A DNA stretch of 57,424 nucleotides from Cyanobacteriota bacterium (GCA_038060635.1 JBBTGK010000308.1:1-57424), one strand, 5' to 3'; numbered from the stretch's first letter, positions 1 through 24,071 are shown. Program-made: numbers and translations. Notes: generated by a model not told the origin, from the sequence alone.

Positions 1-54
1 CTCTTCATTTTCAGAAAGATTAGGTCTTTTAAAAGGTTGGTTGCTTTGTGCCAT
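1..54 (-). CDS. 5' end of an unidentified gene leaving the left edge (partial)
   Basis: The reverse complement of 1-54 reads ATG GCA CAA AGC ... = MAQSNQPFKRPNLSENEE with no stop before the edge. It is too short to assign a family. Confidence 0.3.
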   Translation of the reverse strand, partial: MAQSNQPFKRPNLSENEE

Positions 55-1570: not shown

Positions 1571-3484
1571 ATGTGTGGTATAGGTGGAGTTCTTGATCTT
1601 GCCTTTCAGATGATTCCTAATTTAGGAATAAGTTTAGAAGCGATAAATAAGATACAAAAACATAGAGGTCCTGATGGTGAGGGCATTTGGAAACATAATA
1701 AAGATTTTTTAGGTTTTGCTCATCAAAGATTAACAATAATAGATCTTAGTACTGGACATCAACCTATGTTAGATACAAAAACATCTAATTGCATAACATA
1801 CAATGGTGAAGTTTATAACTACATAGAATTAAGAAATGAATTAAAGTCAGATTTTGATTTTAGAACAACATCAGATACAGAAGTTGTACTTAATTCTTAT
1901 ACAAAATATGGATCTGAATGTGTAAAAAAGCTTAGAGGAATGTTCTCTTTTTCTATATGGGATGATAAGAATGATACCCTATTTTGTGCAAGAGATAGAT
2001 TTGGAATAAAACCATTCTACTATACAATTTCAAATGGCAAATTCTATTTTTCGTCAGAAGCTAAATCTTTATTGCCTTTTATGGATAAAGTAGAAATAAA
2101 TTTAGATGGATTTAAAGATTATCTTACTTTTCAATTTTATTTAGAAGGTAAAACTTTATTCAAAGATATACACGAATTACCGCCAGGACATACTTTAACA
2201 ATAAAAAATGGAAATATAAAAATAGAAAGATATTGGCAAGTTTACTATGATCTAGATTTTGATCATACAGAAAAATATTTTCTCGAAAAAGTAAACGAAT
2301 TATTAAGAGAATCTGTAGATTTACATCTTAGAAGCGATGTTCCTGTTGGAGCTTATTTAAGCGGAGGATTAGATTCTAGCATAATTGCGTCTGTTGCCTC
2401 TCAAAATAACTCTGAAAATTTCTTGGGTTTTACAGGTAAATTTTCATTAGGAGATGAATTTGATGAAAGTCATTATGCAAGAGAACTTGCAAAATTTAAA
2501 AACTTTGAATTACTTGAAGTTGACATAAAATCTCAAGATTTTGTTGATTCTATAAGAAAAGTTATTTATCATCTTGATAGCCCGGTTGCAGGACCAGGTT
2601 CCTTTCCACAATATATGGTTTCCAAACTTGTAAAAAACCATAGAAAAGTTGTTTTGGGTGGACAAGGCGGAGATGAAATTTTTGGTGGATATACAAGATA
2701 TCTAGTTGCATATTTTGAGCAATGTATAAAATCAGCAATTGATGGTACAGCAAACTCAGGAAATTTTATAGTTACCTATGAATCTATTATTCCTAACCTT
2801 ACTGCATTAAAAGGCTATAAGCCTATGTTAAAGCAATTTTGGAAAAATGGGCTTTTTGATGATATAGATAAAAGATATTTTAGTTTAGTTAATAGAGCAC
2901 CAGAACTTGGAAATGAAATAAATTGGTCTGCATTAACAGATTATGAGCCTTATGAAAGCTTTAGAAAGATATTTAAGGCAAAAAACGTTCAAAAAGAATC
3001 TTATTTTGATAGCATGACTCATTTTGATTTTAAAACCCTTCTGCCAGCACTTTTACAAGTAGAAGATAGAGTTAGTATGGCTCATGGAGTTGAATCTCGT
3101 GTTCCATTTTTAGATCATCCCCTTATAGAACTTGCTGCTACAATTCCATCAAATATAAAATTTAAAGATGGGACAATGAAAAATGTGTTAAAAAATTCTA
3201 TGAAAGAATTTTTACCAGATGTAATATTAAATCGTAAAAATAAAATGGGATTCCCTGTTCCTCTTAATGATTGGATTTCAGGGGAATTAAATGAATTTAC
3301 TAGAGAAATTTTTTCAAGCCAAAAATCACTTGGAAGAGATCTTATAAATAATAAAATTATCTTAGAAAACCTTGAAAAAGAACCTAAATTTGGCAGAAAA
3401 ATTTGGGGATTGTTATGTATAGAGCTTTGGCATCAAGAGTTTATTGATAAAGCTCATGAATTTAAAAAATTAGTTAGTTATTAA
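1571..3484 (+). CDS. Asparagine synthase (glutamine-hydrolysing)-like amidotransferase, copy 1
   Basis: N-terminal 'MCGIGG' supplies the Cys2 Ntn-glutaminase nucleophile. 'SGGLDSS' is a PP-loop ATP-pyrophosphatase motif. 637 aa, placed at the head of a polysaccharide gene set. Confidence 0.9.
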   Translation: MCGIGGVLDLAFQMIPNLGISLEAINKIQKHRGPDGEGIWKHNKDFLGFAHQRLTIIDLSTGHQPMLDTKTSNCITYNGEVYNYIELRNELKSDFDFRTTSDTEVVLNSYTKYGSECVKKLRGMFSFSIWDDKNDTLFCARDRFGIKPFYYTISNGKFYFSSEAKSLLPFMDKVEINLDGFKDYLTFQFYLEGKTLFKDIHELPPGHTLTIKNGNIKIERYWQVYYDLDFDHTEKYFLEKVNELLRESVDLHLRSDVPVGAYLSGGLDSSIIASVASQNNSENFLGFTGKFSLGDEFDESHYARELAKFKNFELLEVDIKSQDFVDSIRKVIYHLDSPVAGPGSFPQYMVSKLVKNHRKVVLGGQGGDEIFGGYTRYLVAYFEQCIKSAIDGTANSGNFIVTYESIIPNLTALKGYKPMLKQFWKNGLFDDIDKRYFSLVNRAPELGNEINWSALTDYEPYESFRKIFKAKNVQKESYFDSMTHFDFKTLLPALLQVEDRVSMAHGVESRVPFLDHPLIELAATIPSNIKFKDGTMKNVLKNSMKEFLPDVILNRKNKMGFPVPLNDWISGELNEFTREIFSSQKSLGRDLINNKIILENLEKEPKFGRKIWGLLCIELWHQEFIDKAHEFKKLVSY

Positions 3485-5590: not shown

Positions 5591-7066
5591 ATGACAGAAG
5601 AAAAGAAACCTAGTTTTTTAAAATCTACCTTAATATATGGAATAGGCGGAATGTTAAATAAATTTTTATCATTTTTTCTTTTACCATTATTTACAGCTTA
5701 TCTAACACCTAAAGATTATGGAGTAACTGCAATTTTAGGAACAATGACATTTGTTCTTACCTCTATATTTACACTTGGTTTTGGAACATCAATTGGTTTA
5801 TCTTTTTTTGATACAAAAAATGAATTTAGAAAAGAAGAATCTATACATACAGCATTGATAATTCTACTTTTAAGTGCTGGTCTTATGTTTTTATTTGGAA
5901 GTATATTTTCTATAAAATTTGCGGAACATTTTTTAAATGACAAAGAACATTATAATTTTGTTATTTTATCATTAATATCTAATTTTTTTAATATAATAAT
6001 GACACCGTTAATTGTTTATTATCAATTTGAAAATAAAGCAAAAAAATATATTATCTTAACTAACTTAACATCTGTTTTAGCAATATTAACAAATGTTCTA
6101 TTTGTTGTTTATTTTAAAAGAGGAGTTCAAGGTCTTTTAGAAGCGGGTGTTATTTCTAGTTTATTAACATTTCTAATTTTTTGTATTGATGTATTTAATA
6201 ACTTAAAATTTAAGTTTAGTAAAAATGTTTCAAAAGTTTTGTTAAAGCAAGGCTTGCCAATGGTTCCATCTTTTGCAAGTTTATTTGTTATTCAACAGAG
6301 TAATAGAGTTTTTTTAGAACATTTTAATGGTTTAGAATCTTTAGGTATCTATTCTATAGGATATAATTTAGGAATGGTTATGAGTATTTTTGTAAACGCT
6401 TTTCAAAATACATGGCTTGCATTTTTTTTGTCATATATGGATAAAAAAAAGGAAGCCGAAGAAGTTTTTGGAAAAATTACAACTTATTATATTTTATCTT
6501 TGGGCTTTATAAATACAATGTTTTTTATATTCGCAGGGTCTATAGTTGCATTTATGACTAAAGATGCTTTTCATTCTTCTTATAAAATAGTTGGATTAGC
6601 AGCTACATCTCATTTTTTAAATGGTCTTTTTGCATTATTACTTCCAGCATTATATTTTGAAAAAGAAGTTAAATATGTTACTTTAATACAAATATTCGCG
6701 GCTGTATTTTCAACAATAACAAATATTTTTTTAATAATTTATTTTTCAGAATTTGGTGCAGCATTAGGTTTAGTAATAGGAACTTTTTATATTGTTTTAT
6801 TTCAATATATTTGGAATTTAATAGGAAATCCTAATTATATAAAAATAAAATATGAGTGGGGTAAAATAGCTTTATTTTCTATGTTATATTGTATTTTTTC
6901 TTCTGTAATGCTTATAAATAGAAATTTAGATAAAACAACAGAAATTATATACTCTTTTTCTTTATCAACTATTTTATTACTATTAACATTAATTCTTTTA
7001 AATAATGAAGATAAAAATAAATTAAAAGCTTTTGTTTTACAAAAGCTTAATAGATTAAAAAAATAA
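5591..7066 (+). CDS. Polysaccharide/oligosaccharide flippase (MOP superfamily, Wzx-like)
   Basis: 491-aa polytopic membrane protein with at least 12 hydrophobic segments. N-terminal 'LIYGIGGMLNKFLSFFLLPLFT' is typical of Wzx/RfbX-type flippases. It sits within sugar-nucleotide genes. Confidence 0.8.
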   Translation: MTEEKKPSFLKSTLIYGIGGMLNKFLSFFLLPLFTAYLTPKDYGVTAILGTMTFVLTSIFTLGFGTSIGLSFFDTKNEFRKEESIHTALIILLLSAGLMFLFGSIFSIKFAEHFLNDKEHYNFVILSLISNFFNIIMTPLIVYYQFENKAKKYIILTNLTSVLAILTNVLFVVYFKRGVQGLLEAGVISSLLTFLIFCIDVFNNLKFKFSKNVSKVLLKQGLPMVPSFASLFVIQQSNRVFLEHFNGLESLGIYSIGYNLGMVMSIFVNAFQNTWLAFFLSYMDKKKEAEEVFGKITTYYILSLGFINTMFFIFAGSIVAFMTKDAFHSSYKIVGLAATSHFLNGLFALLLPALYFEKEVKYVTLIQIFAAVFSTITNIFLIIYFSEFGAALGLVIGTFYIVLFQYIWNLIGNPNYIKIKYEWGKIALFSMLYCIFSSVMLINRNLDKTTEIIYSFSLSTILLLLTLILLNNEDKNKLKAFVLQKLNRLKK

Positions 7067-7071
7067 TTCTT

Positions 7072-10000
7072 TTATTTTTTTTCAAAAGTTACAGTAACAT
7101 ATAATTGTCCTAATGAAGAGTTTATAGTTAATGTAGCATTATGTAATCCTTTTTCTAATAATGTAGGATCAGCTATTATGTTTATTATAGATGAATCATT
7201 ACCACTTAATTTATCTACTGTAAGCCAAGGTTGTTCGGATATTATATTCCAAGAAACAGGAATAGAACCTTTTTTTATAATATTAAAATTACTATTGCTA
7301 ATTTGATTTATTTTACCTAAATCTATTAATGTTTTACTTACATCAATATCATTTTTTATTTCTTCTTTAGTAAAAGAAACTAATAAATCTCTTGTTTCAT
7401 TTCCTAAAGATATTTTTACAGAAGCGTTATAAGTTCCAAAAGATAATAAAGTCGGATTAACGGTTATATTTATAGACCCATCACCGATACCACTTTTAGG
7501 CGTAATATCCATCCATTCTTTTTCTGATACAGCAGTCCAGTTTAATATTCCACCACCAGAATTTGTTATTGTTATATTTTTAGAACTAGATGTAGTAATA
7601 TTTCCAAAATCTATTGAATCATCGCTTAATTGAATTATTGGATCAAGTTCTGGGTTTATATTTGAAATTGAAGATGGATTACTGATTATTTTATCAATAC
7701 CAAAAGTTATATTGTTGTTTCGTGAAAAATTAGCATATATTCCATCTGTTTTGTTATTAGAGCCTCTAACATTCCAAACTTCTATAAATTGGCTATAGTT
7801 AAAGTCAAAAGAATCTAAATTTTCATCATTTATAGTTGTCGCATTATTTGAAAAAACAGGAGTACTATGAATACCTTCAGAATTAAAGTTAGCTCTATAC
7901 ATAGGGTTTAAAAAACTTTGAGTTTTTATACTACCTCTTCTTTGTAAAATAGCGGTTTCATCACCTGAGCTTACACCTTGCCATGCAACATAAAATTCTC
8001 CATTATGTTTTCCATCACTTTGGTTTATAGAAACTCTTGGAAATGAATAATCATTATTGGTATCACTTAAAAGAATATCTCCAATTCCTGCTATACTATT
8101 TTCATTTGTATATTTTATAAAAACACCATTATTACTAACACTTCCATTAGTTTGCCATGTAAAAACTGATTTTCCATCACTTGCCATTGCTACATCTATA
8201 TTTGATTGTATTCCTTCTGTATTAGAATTTAATCTATATTCTGGTTTTGATTCATTTGGGTTTATTAAACTAAATTCTCTTTCAAAAATACCTTCTGTAT
8301 CTCCAGAACCTTCTCCTTGCCAAACAATAAAAAGTTTACCGTAGTTTGTACTTCCTTGATTAAGAGCTATTTTAGGATTTATTCTATAACCACCTGTTGA
8401 AGTATTTACTTGTTTTTCTTCTCCTGTTCCAAAATTACCTAATCTAAAAAGCCAAATTCCATCATTATTAACACTTCCAAGAGTTTGCCATGTAATTGCA
8501 CAAGAATTATCTGTTCCAACAACTATAGCTGGCTTGGATTGAAATCCATCTGTTTTATAATTTACTCTATATTCATTAGGATAAGAGTCATAAGCTGTTG
8601 TATCTGCATTGAATCTTTTTATAAAAATACCTGAATTATCTCCTGAACCTACTCCTTCCCAAGTAACAATAAAAAAACCAGTATCTTTGTTTATTGCAAC
8701 AGATGGATGTTTTTGATCTCCTTCAGTAGTGTTATTTATTTTAAATACATCACCTACATTATTTCCTGATTTATCAATTTTTCTTCCATAAATTCCCCAA
8801 CCAGAACCATCTGTTCCATATTCTTGCCAAACAACTATTGTATTTCCATTTTTATCCATAGCTGATGAGGGGTGCGATTTTCCAAAATAATCATTAATTC
8901 CTAGTTCAAATGCTCCAACAGGTGCAGTTCCATTTGTTACTTCTTCATGTGTTGAAACTATTATTTTATGATATCCTGATTCGGTTGCCTTAAAAAGTAT
9001 TTTACTATCTGTTGTTGTTCCAAAATCATCATTCTCAATATCTGATGTAGAAGTTGTATTACTTGGTTTAAATAATCTTAAATGTGCATTTTTTCCATCT
9101 AATTGAGATAGACTTATTTTATAATATTGTCCAACATTTGCATAAAATTTGTATAGTTTTGATGTCCCACTAAGTGTAACCGTTATTGGATCTCCTTCTG
9201 GTGCTATTCCTGAAAAAACTGAATCAGAGATTGGGTCTTTAATTCCTGGATTCATATTTGAAATTAAAGATGGATTACTAATTATTTTATCAAGACCAAA
9301 AGGTATATTACTATTTCTTGAAAAATTAGCATAGATTCCATCTGTTTTGTTATTAGAACCTCTAACATTCCAAATTTCTATAAATTGGCTATAGTTAAGG
9401 GAGAGAGAATCTAAATTTTCATCATTTGTAGTTGTAGCATTATTTGAAAAAATAGGAGTGCTATGAATACCTTCAGAATTAAAGTTAGCTCTATACATAG
9501 GGTTTAAAAAACTTTGAGTTTTTATACTACCTCTTCTTTGTAAAATAGCGGTTTCATCACCTGAGCTTACACCTTGCCATGCAACATAAAATTCTCCATT
9601 ATGTTTTCCATCACTTTGGTTTATAGAAACTCTTGGAAATGAATAATCATTATTGGTATCACTTAAAAGAATATCTCCAATTCCTGCTATACTATTTTCA
9701 TTTGTATATTTTATAAAAACACCATTATTACTAACACTTCCATTAGTTTGCCATGTAAAAACTGATTTTCCATCACTTGCCATTGCTACATCTATATTTG
9801 ATTGTATTCCTTCTGTATTAGAATTTAATCTATATTCTGGTTTTGATTCATTTGGGTTTATTAAACTAAATTCTCTTTCAAAAATACCTTCTGTATCTCC
9901 AGAACCTTCTCCTTGCCAAACAATAAAAAGTTTACCGTAGTTTGTACTTCCTTGATTAAGAGCTATTTTAGGATTTATTCTATAACCACCTGTTGAAGTA

Positions 10001-10956
10001 TTTACTTGTTTTTCTTCTCCTGTTCCAAAATTACCTAATCTAAAAAGCCAAATTCCATCATTATTAACACTTCCAAGAGTTTGCCATGTAATTGCACAAG
10101 AATTATCTGTTCCAACAACTATAGCTGGCTTGGATTGAAATCCATCTGTTTTATAATTTACTCTATATTCATTAGGATAAGAGTCATAAGCTGTTGTATC
10201 TGCATTGAATCTTTTTATAAAAATACCTGAATTATCTCCTGAACCTACTCCTTCCCAAGTAACAATAAAAAAACCAGTATCTTTGTTTATTGCAACAGAT
10301 GGATGTTTTTGATCTCCTTCAGTAGTGTTATTTATTTTAAATACATCACCTACATTATTTCCTGATTTATCAATTTTTCTTCCATAAATTCCCCAACCAG
10401 AACCATCTGTTCCATATTCTTGCCAAACAACTATTGTATTTCCATTTTTATCCATAGCTGATGAGGGGTGCGATTTTCCAAAATAATCATTAATTCCTAG
10501 TTCAAATGCTCCAACAGGTGCAGTTCCATTTGTTACTTCTTCATGTGTTGAAACTATTATTTTATGATATCCTGATTCGGTTGCCTTAAAAAGTATTTTA
10601 CTATCTGTTGTTGTTCCAAAATCATCATTCTCAATATCTGATGTAGAAGTTGTATTACTTGGTTTAAATAATCTTAAATGTGCATTTTTTCCATCTAATT
10701 GAGATAGACTTATTTTATAATATTGCCCAGCATTTGCATAAAATTTGTATATTTTTGATGTCCCACTAAGTGTTACGGTTATTGAATCGCCTTCTGGTGC
10801 TAAACCAGAAAAAATAGCAGTATTTACAGATTTTGTTTTGAAAGATAAAATATCTTTTTTTAGTTTTTCTGTAGGCGTGTTGGTAAGAGGAATACTGCAA
10901 GAAAGAAGTATTAGAGAAAGAAATGTAAGGTATTTTTTATTTTTCATTTTTACCAT
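7072..10956 (-). CDS. Large surface lipoprotein: 2 x (PPC-like domain + ~7 propeller-type repeats) followed by 2 BACON/Ig-like domains
   Basis: Signal peptide plus lipobox 'LSLILLSC'. The PPC-like module is 'YKFYANAGQYYKISLSQLDGKNAHLRLF...GYHKIIVS'. Units of about 55 aa recur, such as 'GDQKHPSVAINKDTGFFIVTWEGVGSGDNSGIFIKRF'. The C-terminal modules read 'NWTAVSEKEWMDITPKSG...GTYNASVKI' and 'SWNIISEQPWLTVDKLSG...GLHNATLTI'. Its start overlaps the upstream gene's stop (ATGGTAA). Confidence 0.85.
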   Translation of the reverse strand: MVKMKNKKYLTFLSLILLSCSIPLTNTPTEKLKKDILSFKTKSVNTAIFSGLAPEGDSITVTLSGTSKIYKFYANAGQYYKISLSQLDGKNAHLRLFKPSNTTSTSDIENDDFGTTTDSKILFKATESGYHKIIVSTHEEVTNGTAPVGAFELGINDYFGKSHPSSAMDKNGNTIVVWQEYGTDGSGWGIYGRKIDKSGNNVGDVFKINNTTEGDQKHPSVAINKDTGFFIVTWEGVGSGDNSGIFIKRFNADTTAYDSYPNEYRVNYKTDGFQSKPAIVVGTDNSCAITWQTLGSVNNDGIWLFRLGNFGTGEEKQVNTSTGGYRINPKIALNQGSTNYGKLFIVWQGEGSGDTEGIFEREFSLINPNESKPEYRLNSNTEGIQSNIDVAMASDGKSVFTWQTNGSVSNNGVFIKYTNENSIAGIGDILLSDTNNDYSFPRVSINQSDGKHNGEFYVAWQGVSSGDETAILQRRGSIKTQSFLNPMYRANFNSEGIHSTPIFSNNATTTNDENLDSLSLNYSQFIEIWNVRGSNNKTDGIYANFSRNSNIPFGLDKIISNPSLISNMNPGIKDPISDSVFSGIAPEGDPITVTLSGTSKLYKFYANVGQYYKISLSQLDGKNAHLRLFKPSNTTSTSDIENDDFGTTTDSKILFKATESGYHKIIVSTHEEVTNGTAPVGAFELGINDYFGKSHPSSAMDKNGNTIVVWQEYGTDGSGWGIYGRKIDKSGNNVGDVFKINNTTEGDQKHPSVAINKDTGFFIVTWEGVGSGDNSGIFIKRFNADTTAYDSYPNEYRVNYKTDGFQSKPAIVVGTDNSCAITWQTLGSVNNDGIWLFRLGNFGTGEEKQVNTSTGGYRINPKIALNQGSTNYGKLFIVWQGEGSGDTEGIFEREFSLINPNESKPEYRLNSNTEGIQSNIDVAMASDGKSVFTWQTNGSVSNNGVFIKYTNENSIAGIGDILLSDTNNDYSFPRVSINQSDGKHNGEFYVAWQGVSSGDETAILQRRGSIKTQSFLNPMYRANFNSEGIHSTPVFSNNATTINDENLDSFDFNYSQFIEVWNVRGSNNKTDGIYANFSRNNNITFGIDKIISNPSSISNINPELDPIIQLSDDSIDFGNITTSSSKNITITNSGGGILNWTAVSEKEWMDITPKSGIGDGSINITVNPTLLSFGTYNASVKISLGNETRDLLVSFTKEEIKNDIDVSKTLIDLGKINQISNSNFNIIKKGSIPVSWNIISEQPWLTVDKLSGNDSSIINIIADPTLLEKGLHNATLTINSSLGQLYVTVTFEKK
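7650..10815 (-). repeat. In-frame tandem duplication, period 1596 bp (532 aa), inside the 1294-aa lipoprotein gene
   Basis: Copy 2 is about 7650-9219 and copy 1 about 9246-10815. 7865-9129 matches 9461-10725 in every line I compared (about 1265 bp), and 425 aa are identical in the ORF track. The edges (7650-7864; 9130-9219) are diverged. The identical 95-aa antisense ORFs at 8057 and 9653 are 1596 bp apart. Confidence 0.95.
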
Positions 10957-12920
10957 GAACCTGAAGCACCACCTGAAGATAAAGTTCTTTCTATAATTAC
11001 TGGACCGACAAAAGTATAATAATTATTACCATTATTTAATTTACCTGTTACAAGCATATAGTATTCTCTAGACCAATCTCTATCATCTTTTATTTTATCA
11101 TCTAATTTTAGTGTTAGATCTTTATAGTAATAGTTTTGCTCTTTTTTTATTGAACCTTGTTCCAAAATTCCTGATGTAACAAATTCTCCATCTCCATTAA
11201 CAAAACCATTCTTACTTTTAGATAAATATAAATTTACATCATTGAAGTTATTATTATCACTACCTTTTGTTTTTTTTATTCTAAATGTAGCAATATTATT
11301 TTCTATTGATTTTACAGATAGTGTTAATTTTATATCATTAGGTAATGATAAAGTTCCTGTTAAAATTGAACTACTACTTCTAGAAGCACTATATTTAGGG
11401 TTAACTGTAGTTATATTTAATATAGATAAAGCTGTATTTGAATCACTTGAAGGGTTTGAGGCTAAAAAAGTTATTTTTTTATTTAAAACTTCATTTAGTT
11501 TTAAAGGAAAACTAAATAATCCATTTTCATTTGCTAAAATATCAATAAAAGAGCCATTTTCATTTGTGAACAAATAATTTGTAGGTGAAATTCTACTATT
11601 TTTAATAGTTGCTCCTGCACAATCAGTTACTTTACCCGTAAAATAGGCTGTTTCTCCTATTGGTATATTAAAATTAAATGACTTAAACATTTTAGAAACA
11701 CCAATACTTTCTTCTGTGACTCCTTTAAAATATGTATTTATATTTCCTTCAAACTTAATTGATCCATCATAGCCACTTATTGCACAAATAATATTTGTAG
11801 GATTTTTTATTTCTAGTATTTTTATAGATATATCACCTAATTTAAATCCTAATGAAAAATCATTATCATTATTAGCTGTATTTTTACAAAAACCTGCGTT
11901 AATAAATACTGATATATCTAAATCTACACAGATTTTAGATTCAATAGCTCCTGTTTCTTTATCAAACCCTATTTCTAAAGTAAAATTTGCAAAACCAGTA
12001 TCAAGACTAGATTGAGATACAACTTCTCTTGTACTTAAATCTATAATAAAGCTTTGCTTGAAATTAGCTAAATTATTTGATATACCTATCTTATTTGATG
12101 TTATTTTATTGGTTAATGGATCTATTGTAATATCAACTAAAATTCCTTTTGTAGTTGGTAAGGATAATGATCCCAAAGAAGCTGCTATAAAAATAACTTC
12201 GTTGTTTGATTTTATTTTAATATCTTTATTAGTTTTAATAGGAAAAAACCATCCTCTTTTAGTTCCATCTACTTCTATAACTTTCCCATTAAATTTTGTA
12301 GGAGCAGGTGGACCATAATAAGTATCAGCTTTTGTTGTATAAACTTTTGAATCATTTATAGTGCTTTCAATTATAACAAGTGAATCATTGGAAGATAGTG
12401 AATTTTGTATTGTTTTTTTATAGTTAAATTTAATTTTTGATGCATCTTGTATACTATTTTTAAGGTGTGTAGATACTAATTTCCAGTTACTTTTACCTGT
12501 TTTTGTATAAATAGAATAAAAAAATGATTTATCTGAGGTTAAATCTATTTCATAACTTGAATTATTTTTAAGATTAGAAATATAAAAAGCTCTTCTGCCT
12601 TCTATTTCTATCATAGAACTTTGTAAATCTTTTCCATTTGCCTTAGTATTAAATGAATTTAGATTTATTTTATTGAAAGTATTTTCTATTTTTTCATTTA
12701 TCTTATCTATTTTATCGGTTTTATCATCATAAACTTGTATATATTGAAAGTTTGTTTTAAAGTTATTATTTTTATTTTCTTTTGATTCTAAAATATCTTT
12801 ATTATTAGTTTTTATTGTGTTTAATTTATCTATTGGGGTACAAGAAAAAAGAAAAAAAAGTATTCCAGTAAAAATAACTAATATTTTAGTATATATATTT
12901 ATATTCTTAAGATATAACAT
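10950..12920 (-). CDS. Lipoprotein of unknown function with a CarboxypepD_reg-like module and a shared C-terminal domain
   Basis: Lipobox 'FFLFSC'. 'GKVTDCAGATIKNSRISPTNYLFTNENGSFIDI' resembles a carboxypeptidase-regulatory-like beta-sandwich. The C-terminal 'EYYMLVTGKLNNGNNYYTFVGPVII' parallels the C-terminus of the 14705-16468 product. Confidence 0.75.
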   Translation of the reverse strand: MLYLKNINIYTKILVIFTGILFFLFSCTPIDKLNTIKTNNKDILESKENKNNNFKTNFQYIQVYDDKTDKIDKINEKIENTFNKINLNSFNTKANGKDLQSSMIEIEGRRAFYISNLKNNSSYEIDLTSDKSFFYSIYTKTGKSNWKLVSTHLKNSIQDASKIKFNYKKTIQNSLSSNDSLVIIESTINDSKVYTTKADTYYGPPAPTKFNGKVIEVDGTKRGWFFPIKTNKDIKIKSNNEVIFIAASLGSLSLPTTKGILVDITIDPLTNKITSNKIGISNNLANFKQSFIIDLSTREVVSQSSLDTGFANFTLEIGFDKETGAIESKICVDLDISVFINAGFCKNTANNDNDFSLGFKLGDISIKILEIKNPTNIICAISGYDGSIKFEGNINTYFKGVTEESIGVSKMFKSFNFNIPIGETAYFTGKVTDCAGATIKNSRISPTNYLFTNENGSFIDILANENGLFSFPLKLNEVLNKKITFLASNPSSDSNTALSILNITTVNPKYSASRSSSSILTGTLSLPNDIKLTLSVKSIENNIATFRIKKTKGSDNNNFNDVNLYLSKSKNGFVNGDGEFVTSGILEQGSIKKEQNYYYKDLTLKLDDKIKDDRDWSREYYMLVTGKLNNGNNYYTFVGPVIIERTLSSGGASGSW

Positions 12921-12934
12921 TAAAATTACCTTTT

Positions 12935-14683
12935 TTATTGAATATCAAATATTTTAAAAGCTGATGTATATGTTTCATATCCATTTTGAGCACTATTACT
13001 TTTTTTCCAAACTACCATAATACTATTATCATCACCTGTTATAATAGGTGATGATATATTATAGTCTTGTGGTTTATCTATTTCTATTGCGTTTCCAACG
13101 GCTTGACCAAGTCTATTATATGCTTTTACATATATACCACGCTCAATTTTTTTGTATATATTACTAGCTCCATAAAAATAAGTATTTTTATCTGGATAAT
13201 AATTTGTTTTCATATATACAAGTATAAAAGAACCATCTCCTCTAACATGTATTTGTGGTTCTGATTCAAAAGATTCAAAACCTGTATTTAAAGAATTATC
13301 ATTTACAGATTCAAGGTCTCTTGGATTACCATTAGAATCATACATTCTAAATCTTATTTCTGAGTAATTATTCCATGCTAAAATAAAATTATTACTTGAA
13401 TCTAAACCAATAGATGGTCTATCTCCAGAACTTCCCATTGTATATTTTCCTACATTTTCACCATTTGGATTAAATTTTTCAACTACTAAAGAACTACTTG
13501 CATTTCTACTACATGTAAAAAAACTACTATCAGAACCCATTGCTATATTTTGGTTACTTGGTGGACTATATAATGATGTTCCTATATATGAACCTTTAGG
13601 CTTTTCTTCTATATACATTTGTACTCCAAGTGTTGCAATAATAAAATCTCCATCACTATTTTTATTAGAAACAATTCTAAAGGAATTATTATCAATAAAC
13701 ATACTACTTTCTGTAATACGTAATTTTGATATTTCATTTAGATTATTATCAAATATTTTTGCTATTGCTTTTAAGGTATAACTTCCATCATTTATATTTC
13801 CTTCCCCTTCGTTATATCCTAGTATGAATCTATTTTTGTACACAGCTAATTTTGGATTAAAGCTATTATATGAGGTTGATAATGTTATTTTTTGAGATAT
13901 TGCAACTCCATTTTTATCTATAATCATTGCATATAATTTATGTTGAATATATTGATTTGTATTTGGATCACGTCCTGAATTATCCTGATCATCTGCCCAA
14001 ATCATAATATAATTACCATTACTAAGCTTGGCTCCTACAGAAGGAGCCTTTCCAGTTCCATAATTACCATATACTTCGGTTTGCCCAAAAGCTTTTAAAT
14101 TAAGAGCATAAGTACTAGGATATTGGGTAATATCCACAGGTACTATTTTTCTAGGCTTAAAAATAGGTTCTATCGGTATAGTTCCAATATTAGCAATATC
14201 TTGTAAAAACATATCTATTTTTACCGAAGAAATATCAGGTGAAACTGCAAACTCTTCAGAACTACCTCTTGATAAAACCTTACCATTTGCATCTTCTAAA
14301 AACAATAAAACCTTAATTAAATCACCCATATTTGAATCAATTTTAAAAGATATCGGCTGTGATGTATTAACTGATAATTTTCTCTCAAAACTTTTACCAA
14401 GTCTCATAACCCTAATTCTTAAAAAAGCATTAGTCGGAAGCCCTATATCTGGTACGGCTTTAGTATTAAAATCGTTGATATTAATAGAATCATTTTTTTT
14501 ACCCAAATCAGACGGTTTTAAAGAAATAACAACAGAACCTTTATTTTTTATATCTGGAAGACTTATAGTAGTATTACCATCAATATTAGCAACTTCTTGA
14601 AAAGTAAAATTATTAGATGAACATGAAACTATAAAACTTACTACTAAAATTGCAGATATTCTCTTAATTAAAACGTTTAGCAT
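12935..14683 (-). CDS. Lipoprotein with propeller-type repeats (paralogous to the repeats in 7072-10956)
   Basis: Lipobox 'FIVSCSSNNF'. Repeat units include 'KAPSVGAKLSNGNYIMIWADDQDNSG', 'DRPSIGLDSSNNFILAWNNYSEIRFRMYDSNGN', 'SEPQIHVRGDGSFILVY' and 'SSPIITGDDNSIMVVWKK'. Confidence 0.75.
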   Translation of the reverse strand: MLNVLIKRISAILVVSFIVSCSSNNFTFQEVANIDGNTTISLPDIKNKGSVVISLKPSDLGKKNDSININDFNTKAVPDIGLPTNAFLRIRVMRLGKSFERKLSVNTSQPISFKIDSNMGDLIKVLLFLEDANGKVLSRGSSEEFAVSPDISSVKIDMFLQDIANIGTIPIEPIFKPRKIVPVDITQYPSTYALNLKAFGQTEVYGNYGTGKAPSVGAKLSNGNYIMIWADDQDNSGRDPNTNQYIQHKLYAMIIDKNGVAISQKITLSTSYNSFNPKLAVYKNRFILGYNEGEGNINDGSYTLKAIAKIFDNNLNEISKLRITESSMFIDNNSFRIVSNKNSDGDFIIATLGVQMYIEEKPKGSYIGTSLYSPPSNQNIAMGSDSSFFTCSRNASSSLVVEKFNPNGENVGKYTMGSSGDRPSIGLDSSNNFILAWNNYSEIRFRMYDSNGNPRDLESVNDNSLNTGFESFESEPQIHVRGDGSFILVYMKTNYYPDKNTYFYGASNIYKKIERGIYVKAYNRLGQAVGNAIEIDKPQDYNISSPIITGDDNSIMVVWKKSNSAQNGYETYTSAFKIFDIQ

Positions 14684-14704
14684 TTCATATTTTCCTTTTT
14701 AATA

Positions 14705-16468
14705 CTAATTTTTTCTAACTGTAATTGGGCCAATCCAATACCAATAAGCTTGGCTTCCTGTTGCATAAATTTCTATTCTTATATAATAATCCTTAGTATT
14801 TTGAGTCCACTCTTTGGTAGAAAGATCTACGCTAAAGGTTTTTGTTTTTTCCCATGAAGTTTGAGAAATACCTTTTATTTCATCTGAAAGTGCAGAAGTA
14901 TTTTCATGCCCACCAACTCTCAAAGATCCTTTTCCTGGTTGTAAAAAACCACCATCTATTTTTGAAACATCTATTGTAAGAATAGTTCCACTTATCACAC
15001 CTGTTATTTTTAAAGGAGATGTATTAAAAGAACTTGCTCCTGTAGTACTAGAAGTATTTAAAAGGGAGTAAGATGTAGCTACAAAACCATTTCTTATAGT
15101 AATATTTCTTGTAAGCGTTTGACTAATTCTTCCATCTCTATCAACTGATTTCATTGATATAGTTTTTATTCCTGCTGTTGAATATCTATGAAAAAGATCT
15201 TGCTCACCACCACCAAGATAATATAATGTTGGTTGAATAGGAGAACCATCACCCCAATCTAAATCAACTTTTACATCTTTATATGGTCTGCTATCACTAG
15301 TAAATTGAAGTAAAAATCTACCATTTTCATTTTTATCAAGTTCTTCAGGACAAGAAATACAAACTGGAGCAGATGGTGCAACCTCAAATGGGGTTATATT
15401 AATTTCTCTAATAATTCTAGAACTTTCTTTGCCAGAATCATCAAAAGTAGAAAATAAGATATTTCTTGTTCCAACAGAGCTATAAGCATGAGAAATATTT
15501 ATATCTCCTTGAGATAAAACATAATCACTAAAAGAATTTGAACTATCTCCCCAATCAATTTTTAACCTAATATTATCTGCTGGTAATCCTAAATCTTTTA
15601 TTCTTACAGACCAATTATTTGTAATTCCAACATTACCTGTAGCAGGGCAAGAAAGACATTCAGGCATTTCGGGTTCTATATTTATGTTGTTATTAGATTC
15701 AACAGGAATATCTTCATTTAAATCGTATAAAGAATTTATATGCTTTTCTACCAGTGTCAAAAATTGAATATTTTCTTGCTCATTTATAACTACATTTGTA
15801 TCTGGTATTGCTCCTGTAGAATCTGGTGTAACAATATGATCAGTTACGGTTGGTTTTTCATAAATTTCTGCTGGAATAGAATAAACAGGATTAGGAGTCG
15901 TTGTTAATATTGGAGTTGGTACTGGAGTAGCTTTTGTTATTTTAGATGAAATAGGAACATCAAAAAACTGTTTATCTGTACCCTCATAGATATTTACAAC
16001 ATTATCTTCATATTCATTTAAAAAATTTACTTCTATTGCATTAGAAACAGGAACTTCTTGTGTATTATTAGGATTTATTTGAAATAAATTTAAATGAGTT
16101 TCTATATTCTGATTAATTAACACAAGATCTGTAGAACCAATAAAAGTTGTTGTTCCATCAATATTTTTCTGAAAAACTTCTATATTTATAGCTTGATCAG
16201 TTTCAGCTTTTATTCTAAATGTATTTTTATTTAAAGAAATTTTTTCTGTTATTGTATGATAATAAATACCATTTTTTTTTGTCTGAATTAAAATCTTAGC
16301 GTTTTCTTTAATATCTGGTAATTTTATATCTGCATAAAATATTTTACTAGAAGGATTTATTTTAGGTAAATTTAGTACATTTTTACTTTCAATTTCTTTC
16401 AATGCAAAATTATTGCTAGAACAAGCATAAAAAGACAAAGATAAAAGCAAAAAAAGTAAAAAACGCAT
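14705..16468 (-). CDS. Lipoprotein with a Pro/Thr linker, two PKD-like domains and a shared C-terminal domain
   Basis: Lipobox 'LSFYACSSNNF'. The linker is 'TKATPVPTPILTTTPNPV'. The PKD signatures are 'KIDWGDSS...HAYSSVGTRNI' and 'DLDWGDGS...HRYSTAGIKTI', each preceded by C-[LI]-S-C-P. The C-terminus is 'DYYIRIEIYATGSQAYWYWIGPITV'. Confidence 0.8.
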   Translation of the reverse strand: MRFLLFLLLSLSFYACSSNNFALKEIESKNVLNLPKINPSSKIFYADIKLPDIKENAKILIQTKKNGIYYHTITEKISLNKNTFRIKAETDQAINIEVFQKNIDGTTTFIGSTDLVLINQNIETHLNLFQINPNNTQEVPVSNAIEVNFLNEYEDNVVNIYEGTDKQFFDVPISSKITKATPVPTPILTTTPNPVYSIPAEIYEKPTVTDHIVTPDSTGAIPDTNVVINEQENIQFLTLVEKHINSLYDLNEDIPVESNNNINIEPEMPECLSCPATGNVGITNNWSVRIKDLGLPADNIRLKIDWGDSSNSFSDYVLSQGDINISHAYSSVGTRNILFSTFDDSGKESSRIIREINITPFEVAPSAPVCISCPEELDKNENGRFLLQFTSDSRPYKDVKVDLDWGDGSPIQPTLYYLGGGEQDLFHRYSTAGIKTISMKSVDRDGRISQTLTRNITIRNGFVATSYSLLNTSSTTGASSFNTSPLKITGVISGTILTIDVSKIDGGFLQPGKGSLRVGGHENTSALSDEIKGISQTSWEKTKTFSVDLSTKEWTQNTKDYYIRIEIYATGSQAYWYWIGPITVRKN

Positions 16469-16627
16469 TTTATTGAATTATAAAACATGGAAAAAATTTT
16501 ACTAATAAAATTATAACAAAGTAAATATTTTTTTACAATCTAAAAACTGGATAAAAATAAAGTAAAATAATTCTTTTATGGTAGAATTAATAGCTTGATA
16601 CAAAAATAATTAAACATAGAGGTAAAA

Positions 16628-17497: not shown

Positions 17498-18817
17498 ATG
17501 AAAAAAATAACAGTCCCAGGCATATTAGTTTTGTATCATAGACATTTGTTGGGTAAAGATGCTGCAACAGTAAATGAGAATATAGAAGCTTTTGAAAAAC
17601 ATTCTAAATTTCCAGTTTGGAAAGTAAATACAGAAATAGTTCCATCTAAAGATCTAGAAAAATTAGAATTTAATGTAATTATCTTTCATTACTCTATTTT
17701 TGCAGAAAAATATCATTTATCTGATGAGTATATAAATTTTATACAACAATCCCAAAATTCACATAAAATAGCTTTTTTTCAAGATGAATATAGGTTTTGT
17801 AAACAAAGATTTAAATTCATGAATGATTTTAATATAGATACTGTTTATACTTGTGTAGAACCTGAATATTATCATCTAGTTTATGGTAAATATACTAACG
17901 TAAAACATATAAAAACTTGCTTTCCTGGTTATGTAAGCAAAGAACTTCCAGAAATCGGTAAAAATTTCTTTGTTCCAGATGAAAAAAGAAACTTAGACAT
18001 TGGTTATAGAGGAAGACAATTAGATTTTTTTATGGGAAAAGGAGCTCAAGAAAAACATGTAATAGGATGGGATTTCAAGAAACTTTGTGAAAATAATAAC
18101 TTAAATTTAAATATTGATGTAGATAGTGAGGAAAACTCAAGACTTTATGGCGATAAATGGTATAAATTTATGGCTAACTGTAAGGGTGTTTTAGGAGTAG
18201 AATCTGGTGTTTCTATATTTGATATAGAAGATAAAGTAATAAAAGCATGTGATATATTTTTGAAATCAAAACCAAATGCAACATTTGAAGAAACTTTTGA
18301 TTCAATTCTTTTTGAATGGGAAAATAATATACCATTAAGAACAGTTAGCCCCAGACATTTTGAAGCATCCGCATTTAGAAACTGTCAAATATTATTTGAA
18401 GGAAACTATTCAGGTGTTTTAAAACCTTATGAACACTATATCCCATTAAAAAAAGATTATTCAAATTTTGATGAAGTAATAAAAATATTTACAAATGAAA
18501 AAGAGAGAAATGAAATAACATCAAGGGCTTATAGAGATATTATAGAATCTGGTAATTATACTTATAAAAAATTTATTGAAGGATTTGATGAACATTTATC
18601 TAATGTAGGGGTAAAAAAAGAAGATTTTAATAAAGATAAAATAGATAAAATAATTAATCGAGGTTTATCTATAAGAAAGGCTCAAAAATTATCTTCTACT
18701 GTTGCAATGTCTTATGCAAGAAGAACTTTTTGGTTTATTATGAAAGACGAAGATAAAAGAAAAGCTTTAAAAAATAATATAAAGAAAATTTTTAGAACTA
18801 TAAAAAATAATAGATAA
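17498..18817 (+). CDS. CgeB-like / Glyco_trans_1_2-type GT-B protein, paralogue 1
   Basis: 'VSPRHFEASAFRNCQILFEG...HYIPLKKDYSNFDEV' resembles the C-terminal half of CgeB-type glycosyltransferases (recollection). It is clearly paralogous to 21534-22787 and 22788-24071. Confidence 0.6.
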   Translation: MKKITVPGILVLYHRHLLGKDAATVNENIEAFEKHSKFPVWKVNTEIVPSKDLEKLEFNVIIFHYSIFAEKYHLSDEYINFIQQSQNSHKIAFFQDEYRFCKQRFKFMNDFNIDTVYTCVEPEYYHLVYGKYTNVKHIKTCFPGYVSKELPEIGKNFFVPDEKRNLDIGYRGRQLDFFMGKGAQEKHVIGWDFKKLCENNNLNLNIDVDSEENSRLYGDKWYKFMANCKGVLGVESGVSIFDIEDKVIKACDIFLKSKPNATFEETFDSILFEWENNIPLRTVSPRHFEASAFRNCQILFEGNYSGVLKPYEHYIPLKKDYSNFDEVIKIFTNEKERNEITSRAYRDIIESGNYTYKKFIEGFDEHLSNVGVKKEDFNKDKIDKIINRGLSIRKAQKLSSTVAMSYARRTFWFIMKDEDKRKALKNNIKKIFRTIKNNR

Positions 18818-21373: not shown

Positions 21374-21533
21374 TAGTAATTTTCAATATCCAAGTCTAAA
21401 AATTTTTATATGTAAACATTGCACTAAGTTTTATATTTTATAACAAAATAAAAAAATAAACTGTTTTTATTGAATAATATTAATAAAATTATTGTAGAAT
21501 TATATTTCTAAAATGATTTATATAAAAATAAAA

Positions 21534-22787
21534 ATGAAGAAAAAAAAAGTTAACGGGATATTATTACTCTATCATTATCCTTTACATAGAAAAGATGCCT
21601 TTACAATAAATGAGCATATTTTTTCTTTTGGACAAAATTCAAAATTTGATGTTTGGGAACTAAATACAGCTCTAGGATTTGATTCACACTTAAAAGAGTT
21701 AGAATTTGATATAATTATACTCCATTATTCCTTATTTGGTGCTGGTTCTTATTATGACATTTCTGATGATTTTTGTAATTATATAAAAGAAGTTTCATCA
21801 TATAAAATAGCTTTTTTTCAGGATGAATATAGATATTGCCAAAGACGATTTAAATTTATAAATGAAAACAATATCTCTACAATCTATACTTGCCTTGAAA
21901 AAAAATATCATCATTTAGTTTATGGAAAATATACTAACGCTAAACACATAATTCATAATTTAACAGGTTATGTTAGTGAAGATTTATTAGGAATAAGTAA
22001 AAAATTTTCATTACCTTATGAAGAAAGAAAAATAGACATTGGTTATAGAGCAAGACGATTAGAGTTTTATATGGGTAAAGGTGGTCAAGAAAAACATCTT
22101 ATCGGTGAAAAATTTTTACAAATAGCAGAAGAAAAAAAAATTAATTTATCTTTAGATATTGATGTAGAAGAAAAAAATCGTTTGTATGGAGAAGAATGGC
22201 ATAAATTTGTAGGAAATTGTAAATCTATGCTAGGAGTAGAATCTGGAGTATCAGTTTTTGATGTAGAAGATGAAGTAACTAAAGAATATGAAATTATGAT
22301 TAAAGAAAAACCTAATATGGAATTTGATGAATTTTATAACAAAATTCTTTATAAATACGAAGATAAAATACCATTAAGAACTGTAAGCCCAAGAAACTTT
22401 GAAGCAATTGCTTTTGGTACAATTCAAATTCTTTTTGAAGGTAATTATGCAGATATGCTAAAAGCTGATCTGCACTATATTCCATTAAAAAAAGATTTTT
22501 CTAATTTTGACGAAGTTATAAATAAATTGGAAGATAAAAACTATACTAATAAAATAATTGATACGGCATTCAAAGATATTATAGAATCAGGTAATTATAC
22601 TTACAAAAAATTTATCGAAGAGTTTGATAATCATTTATATCTATTAGGATTTACGGCATATAAAAATACAGATTACAAAAAAACACGACATATCCTCGAT
22701 AAAAACGTATTTATAAGAAAAATACTAAAACTTACATCTTATTACTTTAGTCGAATAAAATTAAGGATTTATAGATATATAAAATAA
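21534..22787 (+). CDS. CgeB-like / Glyco_trans_1_2-type GT-B protein, paralogue 2
   Basis: 'IAFFQDEYRYCQRRFKFINENNISTIYTC', 'VSPRNFEAIAFG' and 'HYIPLKKDFSNFDEV' are collinear with paralogue 1. ATG 21534 (MKKKKVNGILLLYH) aligns with the paralogue-1 N-terminus. The ORF could start at 21513. Confidence 0.6.
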   Translation: MKKKKVNGILLLYHYPLHRKDAFTINEHIFSFGQNSKFDVWELNTALGFDSHLKELEFDIIILHYSLFGAGSYYDISDDFCNYIKEVSSYKIAFFQDEYRYCQRRFKFINENNISTIYTCLEKKYHHLVYGKYTNAKHIIHNLTGYVSEDLLGISKKFSLPYEERKIDIGYRARRLEFYMGKGGQEKHLIGEKFLQIAEEKKINLSLDIDVEEKNRLYGEEWHKFVGNCKSMLGVESGVSVFDVEDEVTKEYEIMIKEKPNMEFDEFYNKILYKYEDKIPLRTVSPRNFEAIAFGTIQILFEGNYADMLKADLHYIPLKKDFSNFDEVINKLEDKNYTNKIIDTAFKDIIESGNYTYKKFIEEFDNHLYLLGFTAYKNTDYKKTRHILDKNVFIRKILKLTSYYFSRIKLRIYRYIK

Positions 22788-24071
22788 CTATTTATTCATT
22801 CTACTCTTCTCAAAATTTTTTATTTTCATAAAAATATTTTTAGGTATCATTTTTTCTATTTTATTTTTAATTAAAACTTTAAAATTACCTTCTTTTTCTT
22901 TGATAGATGAATAAAAGAAAAAGGATTTTTCTTTTAAATTTAAGTCTTTATTATCTTCCTTTTTTAAAGAATTATCTATTATAAATTTAACATATTTAGA
23001 ATAATCATATTTACCTGAAAGAACAATATCATTATAAGCATTTTCTACAATTTTTTCTCTTAATTCATCTTTTTTTATAATTTCTAAAACTTCATCAATA
23101 TTACTAAAATCTTTTTTAACAGGAATATAATGTTTCCAAGGTTCTAAAATTCCATTATATTCACCTTCTATAAGAATTTGACATGTTTTTGTTACACAAC
23201 ATTCCAAATGTCTAGGAGAAATTGCAGTTAATTTTAAATTACCATCTAATCCCTTAAAACAATTTTCTTCTACTTCTTCAAAACTAGCATTTGGGTTTTG
23301 TTCAATAAATTTTTCTGTTTTTATTTTTATTTCACCTGTAACATCTAAAATTCCAGCGCCACTTTCAACTCCTATAACATATTTACATCTTAAAAGAAAT
23401 TTAATCCAATCATTTCCTAATAAAAAATCTTTTGAATTTGTAGAAATATTTATATCAATTCCTTTTTTTGGTGCTTTATCTTGAAAAATTTTAGCTATTT
23501 GGTATTTTAAATAACCAAATCGTCCTAATGATGCAGAACTTCCCCAAAGTGCAGCTCTATAACCAATATCGATATCTCTATGTTTTATTTGTTTTTCTAA
23601 TTCTAAAACTATATCATTTTTTTCTTTATCCAAATATCCTGTTAATGCTGGATAAAACTTTGTTTTATCAAAATTTATAGTCGGATATATTTTTTTCCAT
23701 TCTGATTCTGGAGCAACAGAAAAAATATTATTAATTTCGAATTCATTGATGAAATCACATAAAATATCTGTATTAATAAATTCATCTTGAGGTTGCATTA
23801 CTTTTATTGCATTAATTTTTTTTAATACTCGACACCTATCAATTATTAGTTTAAAAACATCTAAATCTGATTTTGAACATACAAACATGGTAGTAAAAAT
23901 AATTAAATCAAAATTTATTTTAGTTAAATAAGAAAGATCTTTTGTTACCCTTACATTAACATAAATTATATTATGTTCATTTGAATATTTTTTAAAACAA
24001 TACAAATGATCTTCCATTGTAGATCTTATAGGATGGTGAAAATTACTATAAACAATTAATATATTAGACAT
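22788..24071 (-). CDS. CgeB-like / Glyco_trans_1_2-type GT-B protein, paralogue 3 (divergent)
   Basis: 'ISPRHLECCVTKTCQILIEGEYNGILEPWKHYIPVKKDFSNIDEV' and 'GKYDYSKYVKFI' parallel the other two. Its stop codon abuts the stop of paralogue 2 (22785-22787 / 22788-22790). Confidence 0.6.
   Translation of the reverse strand: MSNILIVYSNFHHPIRSTMEDHLYCFKKYSNEHNIIYVNVRVTKDLSYLTKINFDLIIFTTMFVCSKSDLDVFKLIIDRCRVLKKINAIKVMQPQDEFINTDILCDFINEFEINNIFSVAPESEWKKIYPTINFDKTKFYPALTGYLDKEKNDIVLELEKQIKHRDIDIGYRAALWGSSASLGRFGYLKYQIAKIFQDKAPKKGIDINISTNSKDFLLGNDWIKFLLRCKYVIGVESGAGILDVTGEIKIKTEKFIEQNPNASFEEVEENCFKGLDGNLKLTAISPRHLECCVTKTCQILIEGEYNGILEPWKHYIPVKKDFSNIDEVLEIIKKDELREKIVENAYNDIVLSGKYDYSKYVKFIIDNSLKKEDNKDLNLKEKSFFFYSSIKEKEGNFKVLIKNKIEKMIPKNIFMKIKNFEKSRMNK

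Follow-up and report, generated by a model that had tools for sequence, protein, structure and literature searches.

What are four lipoprotein genes doing in the middle of a polysaccharide locus in an uncultured bacterium? The genes, here called A–D, occupy positions 7,072–16,468 of a contig of 57,424 nt (JBBTGK010000308.1, 1–57,424; GC ~25%; 'the window' below means this whole stretch of DNA) from a metagenome-assembled genome (MAG) labelled 'Cyanobacteriota bacterium' (GCA_038060635.1). We favour, with a probability of about 45%, the reading that A–D encode non-catalytic, lipid-anchored envelope proteins with a binding or adhesive role; within that reading, the odds of a specific link to the adjacent polysaccharide are no better than even. 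A single transcript would then yield four lineage-specific, lipid-anchored envelope proteins lacking a catalytic domain, each tethered by a lipidated N-terminal Cys and a low-complexity linker containing the motif F-[KN]-T-K-[AS] (degenerate in A). Beyond the tether would stand a pair of PKD-like Ig domains in A, a single diverged propeller in B, and two units of PPC plus seven-bladed propeller as well as two BACON domains in D, with a C-terminal beta domain common to A and C. With such modules the proteins would bind carbohydrate, or other ligands at the surface, multivalently, and their role would be adhesion, or keeping extracellular polymer on the cell and organising it there. We infer the surface exposure, the glycan ligand and the tie to the neighbouring polysaccharide from the features described below.

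Module content of the four predicted lipoproteins

A–D are real genes. With ~25% GC, stops make up ~8.8% of random codons and composition arithmetic puts the chance of an open reading frame (ORF) of at least 580 codons at p ~1e-23, so that ORFs of 582–1294 codons are not expected by accident. Each product begins with a lipobox, recognised by pattern inspection only as a basic n-region, a hydrophobic h-region and [LVIF][ASTVILFY][GAS]C within ~15–35 residues: SFYAC16 in A, FIVSC21 in B, FLFSC27 in C and ILLSC20 in D. The domain content is clearest in D, which matches PPC PF04151 in two stretches (36.5 bits, cutoff 25.9) and BACON_2 PF19190 in two stretches (60.6 bits, cutoff 25), with BACON PF13004 borderline (24.3 bits, cutoff 25). 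A hidden Markov model (HMM) of the blade matches D 14 times, giving 14 blades (7+7) of ~56 aa each. An AlphaFold2 (AF2) model of one D unit, built from a three-sequence alignment (predicted local distance difference test score (pLDDT) 67, predicted template modelling score (pTM) 0.68), comprises a beta-sandwich and seven four-stranded blades. The propellers of B and D are of the same blade type (E 2e-6).

The PKD-like pair in A is a less certain assignment. The PKD_4 profile is sub-threshold on aa 261–462 (16.4 bits, cutoff 27), the PKD domain 4xed of the PDB matches the pair at E 0.0025, and each copy shows a WGD[GS] motif. A HMMER search with A against 1.84 billion representatives gave 547 matches at E ≤ 0.001, and all 149 of those listed besides A itself match only aa ~245–515. 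The outer domains of A resemble its neighbours, the N-terminal domain that of B (28% identity over 95 aa, a score reached by 2 of 2000 shuffles) and the C-terminal domain that of C (21% identity over 86 aa, a score reached by none of 2000 shuffles); these similarities are weak but above chance. A MAFFT alignment of the two C-termini, in which the residues came out scattered, was discarded. Neither Pfam nor NCBIfam assigns C to a family at E ≤ 1, and PDB sequence and PHROGs searches with it were also empty.

This inventory agrees in most respects with an earlier interpretation made from the DNA sequence without database searches (the sequence-only reading). A signal peptide and lipobox Cys in each gene (FYAC, IVSC, LFSC and LLSC in A, B, C and D, respectively) were seen again, as were the Pro/Thr stalk and two probable PKD modules of A, and the two PPC-like domains, two BACON domains and propeller repeats, which Pfam and the blade HMM place in D, with weaker blades of the same type in B. 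The pairwise sharing of modules between A and B, A and C, and B and D is above chance in all three cases. The tight co-directional packing that it described, with a 7-nt overlap (10950–10956) and gaps of 14 nt (12921–12934) and 21 nt (14684–14704), was reproduced, and annotation of the flanks places the four genes, as it had proposed, between a Wzx half and a Wzy/Wzz/glycosyltransferase (GT) half of the locus. Its CarboxypepD_reg-like module was not recovered, given that C is without a Pfam or NCBIfam match at E ≤ 1.

The two PPC–propeller units of D form an in-frame tandem duplication whose copies are 100% identical over ~1.2 kb (7912–9111 versus 9508–10707) and 73–97% identical at both ends. 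Two more ENA assemblies, from replicate samples of Hainich groundwater well H41 (L001 and L083), cover parts of the region, and L083, assembled independently, departs from the window at only 50 positions in 13,432 nt. One D copy accounts for 25 of them and the other copy for the same 25 sites (8098–8926, 9694–10522), a mirrored pattern most simply explained if the real copies, two or more, are ~97% identical and each assembler threaded one variant through them. The perfect identity of the 1.2-kb core is therefore probably an assembly artefact. Very recent duplication or gene conversion was considered for this core and set aside, assembler collapse of ~97% identical copies being likelier in the light of L083. 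The duplication itself is real, because D comes to 1294 aa in either assembly and its units can be told apart at their ends. Of the codons that differ between the D variants, some two thirds do so synonymously, which suggests that both units have been kept under selection.

A shared tether tag and the relatives of A–D

The feature that best argues for a common destination of the four proteins, though it does not make them a complex, is a pentapeptide tag, F-[KN]-T-K-[AS] (FxTK for short), of which a six-frame translation of the window contains three copies, in B, C and D only. The window tags stand 19–63 residues past the lipobox Cys (17–63 for all known copies), at the end of the low-complexity tether and ahead of first domains that are unrelated, and the tag therefore behaves as portable. 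It is found at the same place in homologues of D, as AFKTKS in P0003 and KFKTKA in STL-CYA2, a 'Candidatus Sericytochromatia' MAG (25% GC) that is the closest genome with a D relative. Neighbours of the STL-CYA2 homologue carry it too, a 661-aa lipoprotein as KFNSKV and an S8 subtilase lipoprotein as TFNTKA or GFSTKA. No other lipobox ORF of the window has the tag, and this includes four whose lipobox-like N-termini end in SC or AC; among 43 lipobox-like ORFs of the relatives' loci it occurs in six, all in L002, L003 or L082 and none from other lineages.

Its recurrence points to a shared step of sorting, processing or docking, in which the tag could serve as signal, as processing site or as docking strand. 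A bolder proposal makes it a new lineage-specific signal with A–D as its cargo, a propeller/Ig coat that would tether the local polysaccharide; the S8 subtilase of STL-CYA2 could then be the processing enzyme or a co-displayed partner. We regard this proposal as decidedly improbable. The shared tag itself could point to an undescribed route of lipoprotein sorting or processing in low-GC Sericytochromatia-like Cyanobacteriota.

The four SC/AC ORFs just mentioned lie at 36925–37530, 38092–38730, 46031–46657 and 53028–53666, and one encodes a DsbA-like thioredoxin; they indicate that the 'SC' style of lipobox is common in this organism.

Relatives of A, B and C were sought in ~15 billion proteins and by metagenome scans, and none was found beyond generic domains. 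A word-indexed search of 5.8 billion clusters returned B itself only for B and no match for C, and scans of metagenome contigs with B and C found nothing. Apart from generic domains, A–C thus appear to be orphans. The only other copies of A–D are re-assemblies of the same population. D has a wider family: the closest relative reaches a tblastn E value of 1e-88 and the others lie between 1e-22 and 1e-35, and relatives on two short ENA contigs share 56–58% identity. One of these two, P0003, is a 585-aa single-unit PPC and propeller lipoprotein (PPC 29.9 bits), and the STL-CYA2 homologue is a 610-aa single-unit lipoprotein with 37% identity, present in two paralogous regions; the PPC of the copy in L002 scores 25.4 bits, just under the cutoff of 25.9. 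A conserved four-gene set was not seen, in that none of 80 D-relative loci encodes a relative of A or C or the N-domain of B.

In STL-CYA2 the module around the D homologue is copied on two contigs, at 3000–13100 of L002 (JAXLXH010000001) and 3584–11647 of L003 (JAXLXH010000002), and consists of small lipoprotein(s), the S8 subtilase lipoprotein, a 628/661-aa lipoprotein and the PPC–propeller lipoprotein. The D-homologue genes of the two copies are 99.9% identical and their neighbours 75–98%. L002 alone has a YhgA-like transposase gene, ~1 kb beyond the small-lipoprotein end of the module. The 661-aa lipoprotein was tried as a relative of A, B or C and rejected, with no similarity (best E 0.17) except the tag.

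The blade repeat itself is widespread, being found in Nostoc, Zoogloea, Planctomycetota, Acidobacteriota, Cytophaga and a Thermoplasmata archaeon, with the consensus EFQVNTYTTxxQxxPxVAMDADGDFVITWxSxGQDGSGxGIYAQRY (80 loci from many phyla, L004–L081; one archaeal). D, with its 14 blades, and B, weakly, belong to this seven-blade repeat. Its carriers there are large secreted proteins, in which it is partnered by RTX-like Gly/Asp-rich repeats in Nostoc (read from the sequence, no family scoring), by cadherin-like repeats, by a type IX secretion system (T9SS) tail in Cytophaga and by FN3 in the Thermoplasmata protein. The D/B propeller family is accordingly extracellular elsewhere, which fits an adhesin or binding role. 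Compared with the other carriers, D and its low-GC Sericytochromatia-like relatives are distinguished by a lipobox, the FxTK tag and a PPC domain before the blades. Neither Pfam nor NCBIfam has a model of the repeat, nor was a structure found for it; it is a candidate for a new curated family.

Binding, enzymatic, incidental and export-related readings

Several observations weigh against the favoured binding reading. A–D lie on the opposite strand from both neighbours, and their proximity to the polysaccharide genes may be incidental. Among the 80 D-relative loci, one has any homologue of the window's polysaccharide genes within 10 kb, and the D homologue of STL-CYA2 adjoins the S8 subtilase and other lipoproteins, with no glycan locus. 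Lipobox proteins are common in the window (4–5 others among ~45 ORFs), and those encoded by A–D may face the periplasm rather than the surface. About 45% of A–D residues (the ends of A, the N-domain of B and all of C) have no assignable family or fold, and the single-sequence AF2 model of C is unusable (pLDDT 34). Finally, a Foldseek search of the PDB with the D-unit model matches enzymes, namely sialidases, GH145, PL25, PL42, GH43, GH93 and galactose oxidase.

These data also change the sequence-only reading, which had proposed a surface coat, adhesin or glycan-capture complex. Its view of A–D as lipoproteins made of binding modules stands, whereas a single complex and a coupling to the glycan are not supported. 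Co-inheritance with the glycan locus fails for D, as the other 79 of the 80 loci are without homologues of the window's polysaccharide genes within 10 kb, and the neighbourhood survey that it had proposed finds the D homologues unlinked to A–C, an outcome that it had itself named as refuting. The modules shared in pairs had been taken as a mark of subunits of one assembly; local duplication and domain shuffling give the same pattern. One surface complex coupled to glycan is thus speculation, weakened where comparative data can test it. Nor is an insertion of the operon into the locus, as the same reading worded it, demonstrated: third-position GC (GC3) of A–D (0.088–0.106) equals that of the flanks, codon usage is native, and there is no sign of recent import, so recent horizontal insertion was dropped as unsupported.

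If the Foldseek matches reflected function, D and B would be polysaccharide lyases or glycosidases that trim or release the polymer of the locus, with PPC, BACON and PKD as binding or spacer domains. BACON domains commonly accompany glycoside hydrolases, a Nostoc homologue shows a partial blade-level match to GH43, and the top matches of the D unit include sialidases, the ulvan lyase of PL25, the rhamnose-glucuronate lyase of PL42 and the seven-bladed GH145 BT3686, the last with a template modelling (TM) score of 0.64 on the target. RbmB, PslG, AlgL and PelA would be the models from other exopolysaccharide systems, and exopolysaccharide loci often hold one degradative enzyme, RbmB being an example (PMC8295476). 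However, the Foldseek matches (E 1e-9 to 1e-7, TM 0.4–0.64, ~10% sequence identity) span 5-, 6- and 7-bladed folds and are therefore generic to the propeller. Pfam, NCBIfam and PHROGs, like sequence searches of the PDB, detected no enzyme family in A–D, neither B nor D matches GH33, GH145, PL25, PL42 or GH43 in Pfam, and PDB sequence searches with A–D and with a canonical-propeller profile gave no meaningful match. Likeness of the D-unit model to BT3686, PL25, PL42 and the six-bladed sialidases is at the level of fold only, with no catalytic residues identified in D. The earlier statement that A–D hold no catalytic motif is borne out as far as enzyme families go and qualified by the unassignable residues and by the Foldseek comparison, which had been suggested at the same time and, run on the D unit, yields fold-level enzyme matches and no family-level one.

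The conserved residues point in the same direction. The blade repeat is highly self-similar, and the residues invariant among D relatives mostly form a motif repeated per blade (W-Q/E, G-x-D/G and N-x-T-x-G-x-Q-x-x-P) rather than a blade-specific constellation; on the model they would fall in the B-C and D-A loops of the blades, normally the ligand-binding face of a propeller. Lectin-type propellers have the same polar residues recurring in each blade, enzymes a blade-specific catalytic centre. A polar motif present in every blade is therefore nearer the former, a likeness that is suggestive only. As the propeller family is moreover unlinked to glycan loci elsewhere, we consider an enzymatic role improbable.

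Rather unlikely, but deserving of more weight, is the explanation that A–D encode lineage-specific lipoproteins of a common sort, at the surface or in the periplasm, such as variable surface antigens or adhesins directed at particles, prey or hosts. Their placement would be incidental, with neither a tie to the glycan nor a mutual complex. The strand of A–D, opposite to both neighbours, the non-glycan contexts of D relatives and the frequency of lipoproteins in this genome fragment all fit; the orphan status of A–C is typical of fast-evolving surface proteins, and the internal duplication of D of expanding ones. On the other side, BACON and propeller modules are most often carbohydrate-related, A–D share the codon usage of the locus and they sit between its two halves in both independent assemblies, although none of these points is strong evidence against it. 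A further explanation casts A–D as periplasm-facing accessories of polysaccharide export, comparable to GfcB/YjbF, GfcC/YjbG and GfcD/YjbH. Lipoproteins of unknown role are known components of group 4 capsule/yjbEFGH-type loci, and a YjbH-like gene is present in this locus. Yet none of A–D matches YjbF/GfcB, GfcC/YjbG or YjbH/GfcD at E ≤ 1, chains of this size, with many domains, Ig-like spacers and a Pro/Thr stalk, are more typical of surface display, and the propeller family is extracellular elsewhere, which together make an export role highly improbable.

The favoured reading of A–D as lipid-anchored binding proteins has a close positional analogue in Vibrio cholerae, where the rbm genes (RbmA, RbmC, Bap1, RbmB) stand between vps-I and vps-II, and RbmA, RbmC and Bap1 are secreted, non-catalytic proteins of propeller or tandem Ig-FnIII type that bind polymer and surfaces (PMC8295476). 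As in that cluster, genes for propeller/Ig-type proteins lie between the halves of an exopolysaccharide locus. The analogy does not extend to homology, since PDB sequence searches gave no match to RbmA, RbmC or Bap1 at E ≤ 10; the PKD-like pair of A has a weak, domain-level match to the NCBIfam 'RbmA-like' PamR (39.9 bits, cutoff 300). The propellers of A–D are seven-bladed and of another repeat family, whereas Bap1 is eight-bladed with a beta-prism insert, and A–D are predicted to be lipid-anchored, whereas the rbm matrix proteins are freely secreted. SusE/SusF-type surface glycan-binding proteins (SGBPs) of Bacteroidota polysaccharide utilisation loci share with A–D, as these are predicted to be, an N-terminal lipid, tandem beta-sandwich/Ig modules, BACON, the lack of a catalytic domain and an association with glycan-related loci. 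In contrast to SGBPs, A–D stand in a biosynthetic (Wzx/Wzy) rather than a catabolic locus and in another phylum, and propellers and the FxTK tag are not SGBP features; Pfam finds no TonB-dependent receptor (SusC) or SusD in 32 flanking ORFs, the 13 smaller ORFs downstream of 38 kb being left out.

Taken together, A–D amount to a new architecture among surface or matrix lipoproteins, found in a lineage about which little is known. If the favoured reading holds, this uncultured and scarcely studied branch of Cyanobacteriota would have its own, lipid-anchored counterpart of the Vibrio matrix-protein cluster, and the very widespread propeller repeat, which is without curated family or structure, would gain its first functional lead. 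Their present value is that of well-delimited hypothetical surface proteins, useful for annotation and structural genomics, with no major question overturned or opened.

Transcription, locus setting and feature coordinates

Coordinates of the genes, domains, tags and putative signals are collected below. The 7-nt overlap, ATGGTAA, consists of the D start codon ATG laid over the C stop (TGG-TAA); with the NCBI start of D the overlap is gone and the tight packing is kept. RBS-like (ribosome-binding-site-like) AAGGA and AAGG precede B and C. A–D are convergent with wzx, the stops being 5 bp apart, and divergent from the methyltransferase gene, and since they lie opposite both neighbours they share a transcript with neither. 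We infer that A–D form a transcription unit of their own and are co-transcribed. The promoter-like site upstream of A is a consensus match, and such matches are no commoner in this intergenic region than in shuffled sequence; the hairpin 3' of D could terminate the transcript.

Genes A–D, their predicted domains, tag copies and putative transcription signals (coordinates in the window unless a contig is named)
Feature	Protein position	Coordinates	Strand	Remark
Gene A		14705–16468	−	587 aa; MEK7434582.1, AABZ74_15725
A signal peptide and lipobox	aa 1–16	16421–16468	−	
A N-domain, common with B	aa 17–170	15959–16420	−	
A degenerate tag		16205–16222	−	TFRIKA
A Pro/Thr linker	aa 176–226	15791–15943	−	39% P+T
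A PKD-like 1	aa 261–352	15413–15688	−	
A PKD-like 2	aa 356–462	15083–15403	−	
A C-domain, common with C	aa 480–587	14708–15031	−	
Gene B		12935–14683	−	582 aa; MEK7434581.1, AABZ74_15720
B signal peptide and lipobox	aa 1–21		−	
B N-domain	aa 22–170		−	
B tag	aa 72–76	14456–14470	−	DFNTKA (FNTKA)
B diverged propeller	aa 195–582	12938–14101	−	~6–7 weak blades
Gene C		10950–12920	−	656 aa; MEK7434580.1, AABZ74_15715
C signal peptide and lipobox	aa 1–27		−	
C tag	aa 90–94	12639–12653	−	SFNTKA (FNTKA)
C central region				mostly beta; no family assigned
C C-domain, common with A	aa 545–645	10986–11288	−	
Gene D		7072–10956	−	1294 aa; MEK7434579.1, annotated from M4
D signal peptide	aa 1–20		−	
D tag	aa 39–43	10828–10842	−	SFKTKS (FKTKS)
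D PPC1	aa 50–165	10462–10809	−	
D 7-blade propeller 1	aa 166–560	9277–10461	−	
D PPC2	aa 582–697	8866–9213	−	
D propeller 2	aa 698–1092	7681–8865	−	
D BACON 1	aa 1105–1185	7402–7644	−	
D BACON 2	aa 1205–1292	7081–7344	−	
D in-frame tandem duplication, PPC and propeller unit		7645–10828	−	1596 nt = 532 codons; copies ~7645–9240, 9241–10828
Tags outside the window		L002 7609, 9980, 6917		
Tags outside the window		L003 7784, 9980		
Tag outside the window		L082 309		
Divergent intergenic region, A/methyltransferase		16469–16627		promoter-like site inside
Promoter-like TTGTAA-17-TATAAT, upstream TG		16538..16510	−	consensus match only
Terminator-like hairpin		7026–7048	−	10-bp stem then T-rich tail; 3' of D stop, within wzx 3' end

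The ~25% GC content and STL-CYA2 as the closest genome with a D relative together indicate that the host is most likely an uncultured, non-photosynthetic, low-GC member of Cyanobacteriota, and the LptF/G and MlaD genes of the window indicate a diderm envelope. On the left flank, all genes are on the plus strand and encode FIST, an AsnB-like amidotransferase, two epimerase/dehydratases and Wzx; the right flank encodes the methyltransferase, an O-antigen-ligase/Wzy-like protein, a GNVR/Wzz-like protein, two GT4, a second AsnB-like protein and the YjbH-like protein (28492–29310). No tRNA gene was found, and Rfam gave no match at gathering thresholds.

In the ENA contig L001 gene C is broken into two ORFs at 6905–6981 (window 12355–12366); a natural frameshift was ruled out, the break being a scaffold gap made of an N run and junk sequence. 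A TTG-initiated ORF of 111 aa (11242–11577, plus strand) lies antisense inside gene C and is most likely spurious. Three ORFs of 424–439 aa in the polysaccharide locus (17498–18817, 21513–22787 and 22788–24071) are without a Pfam match even at E 0.5; they may encode additional components peculiar to the lineage, whether polymerase, ligase or membrane proteins. The AsnB-type glutamine amidotransferases, one per locus half (1571–3484 and 26579–28408), suggest that the polymer of the locus contains an amidated sugar or uronamide.

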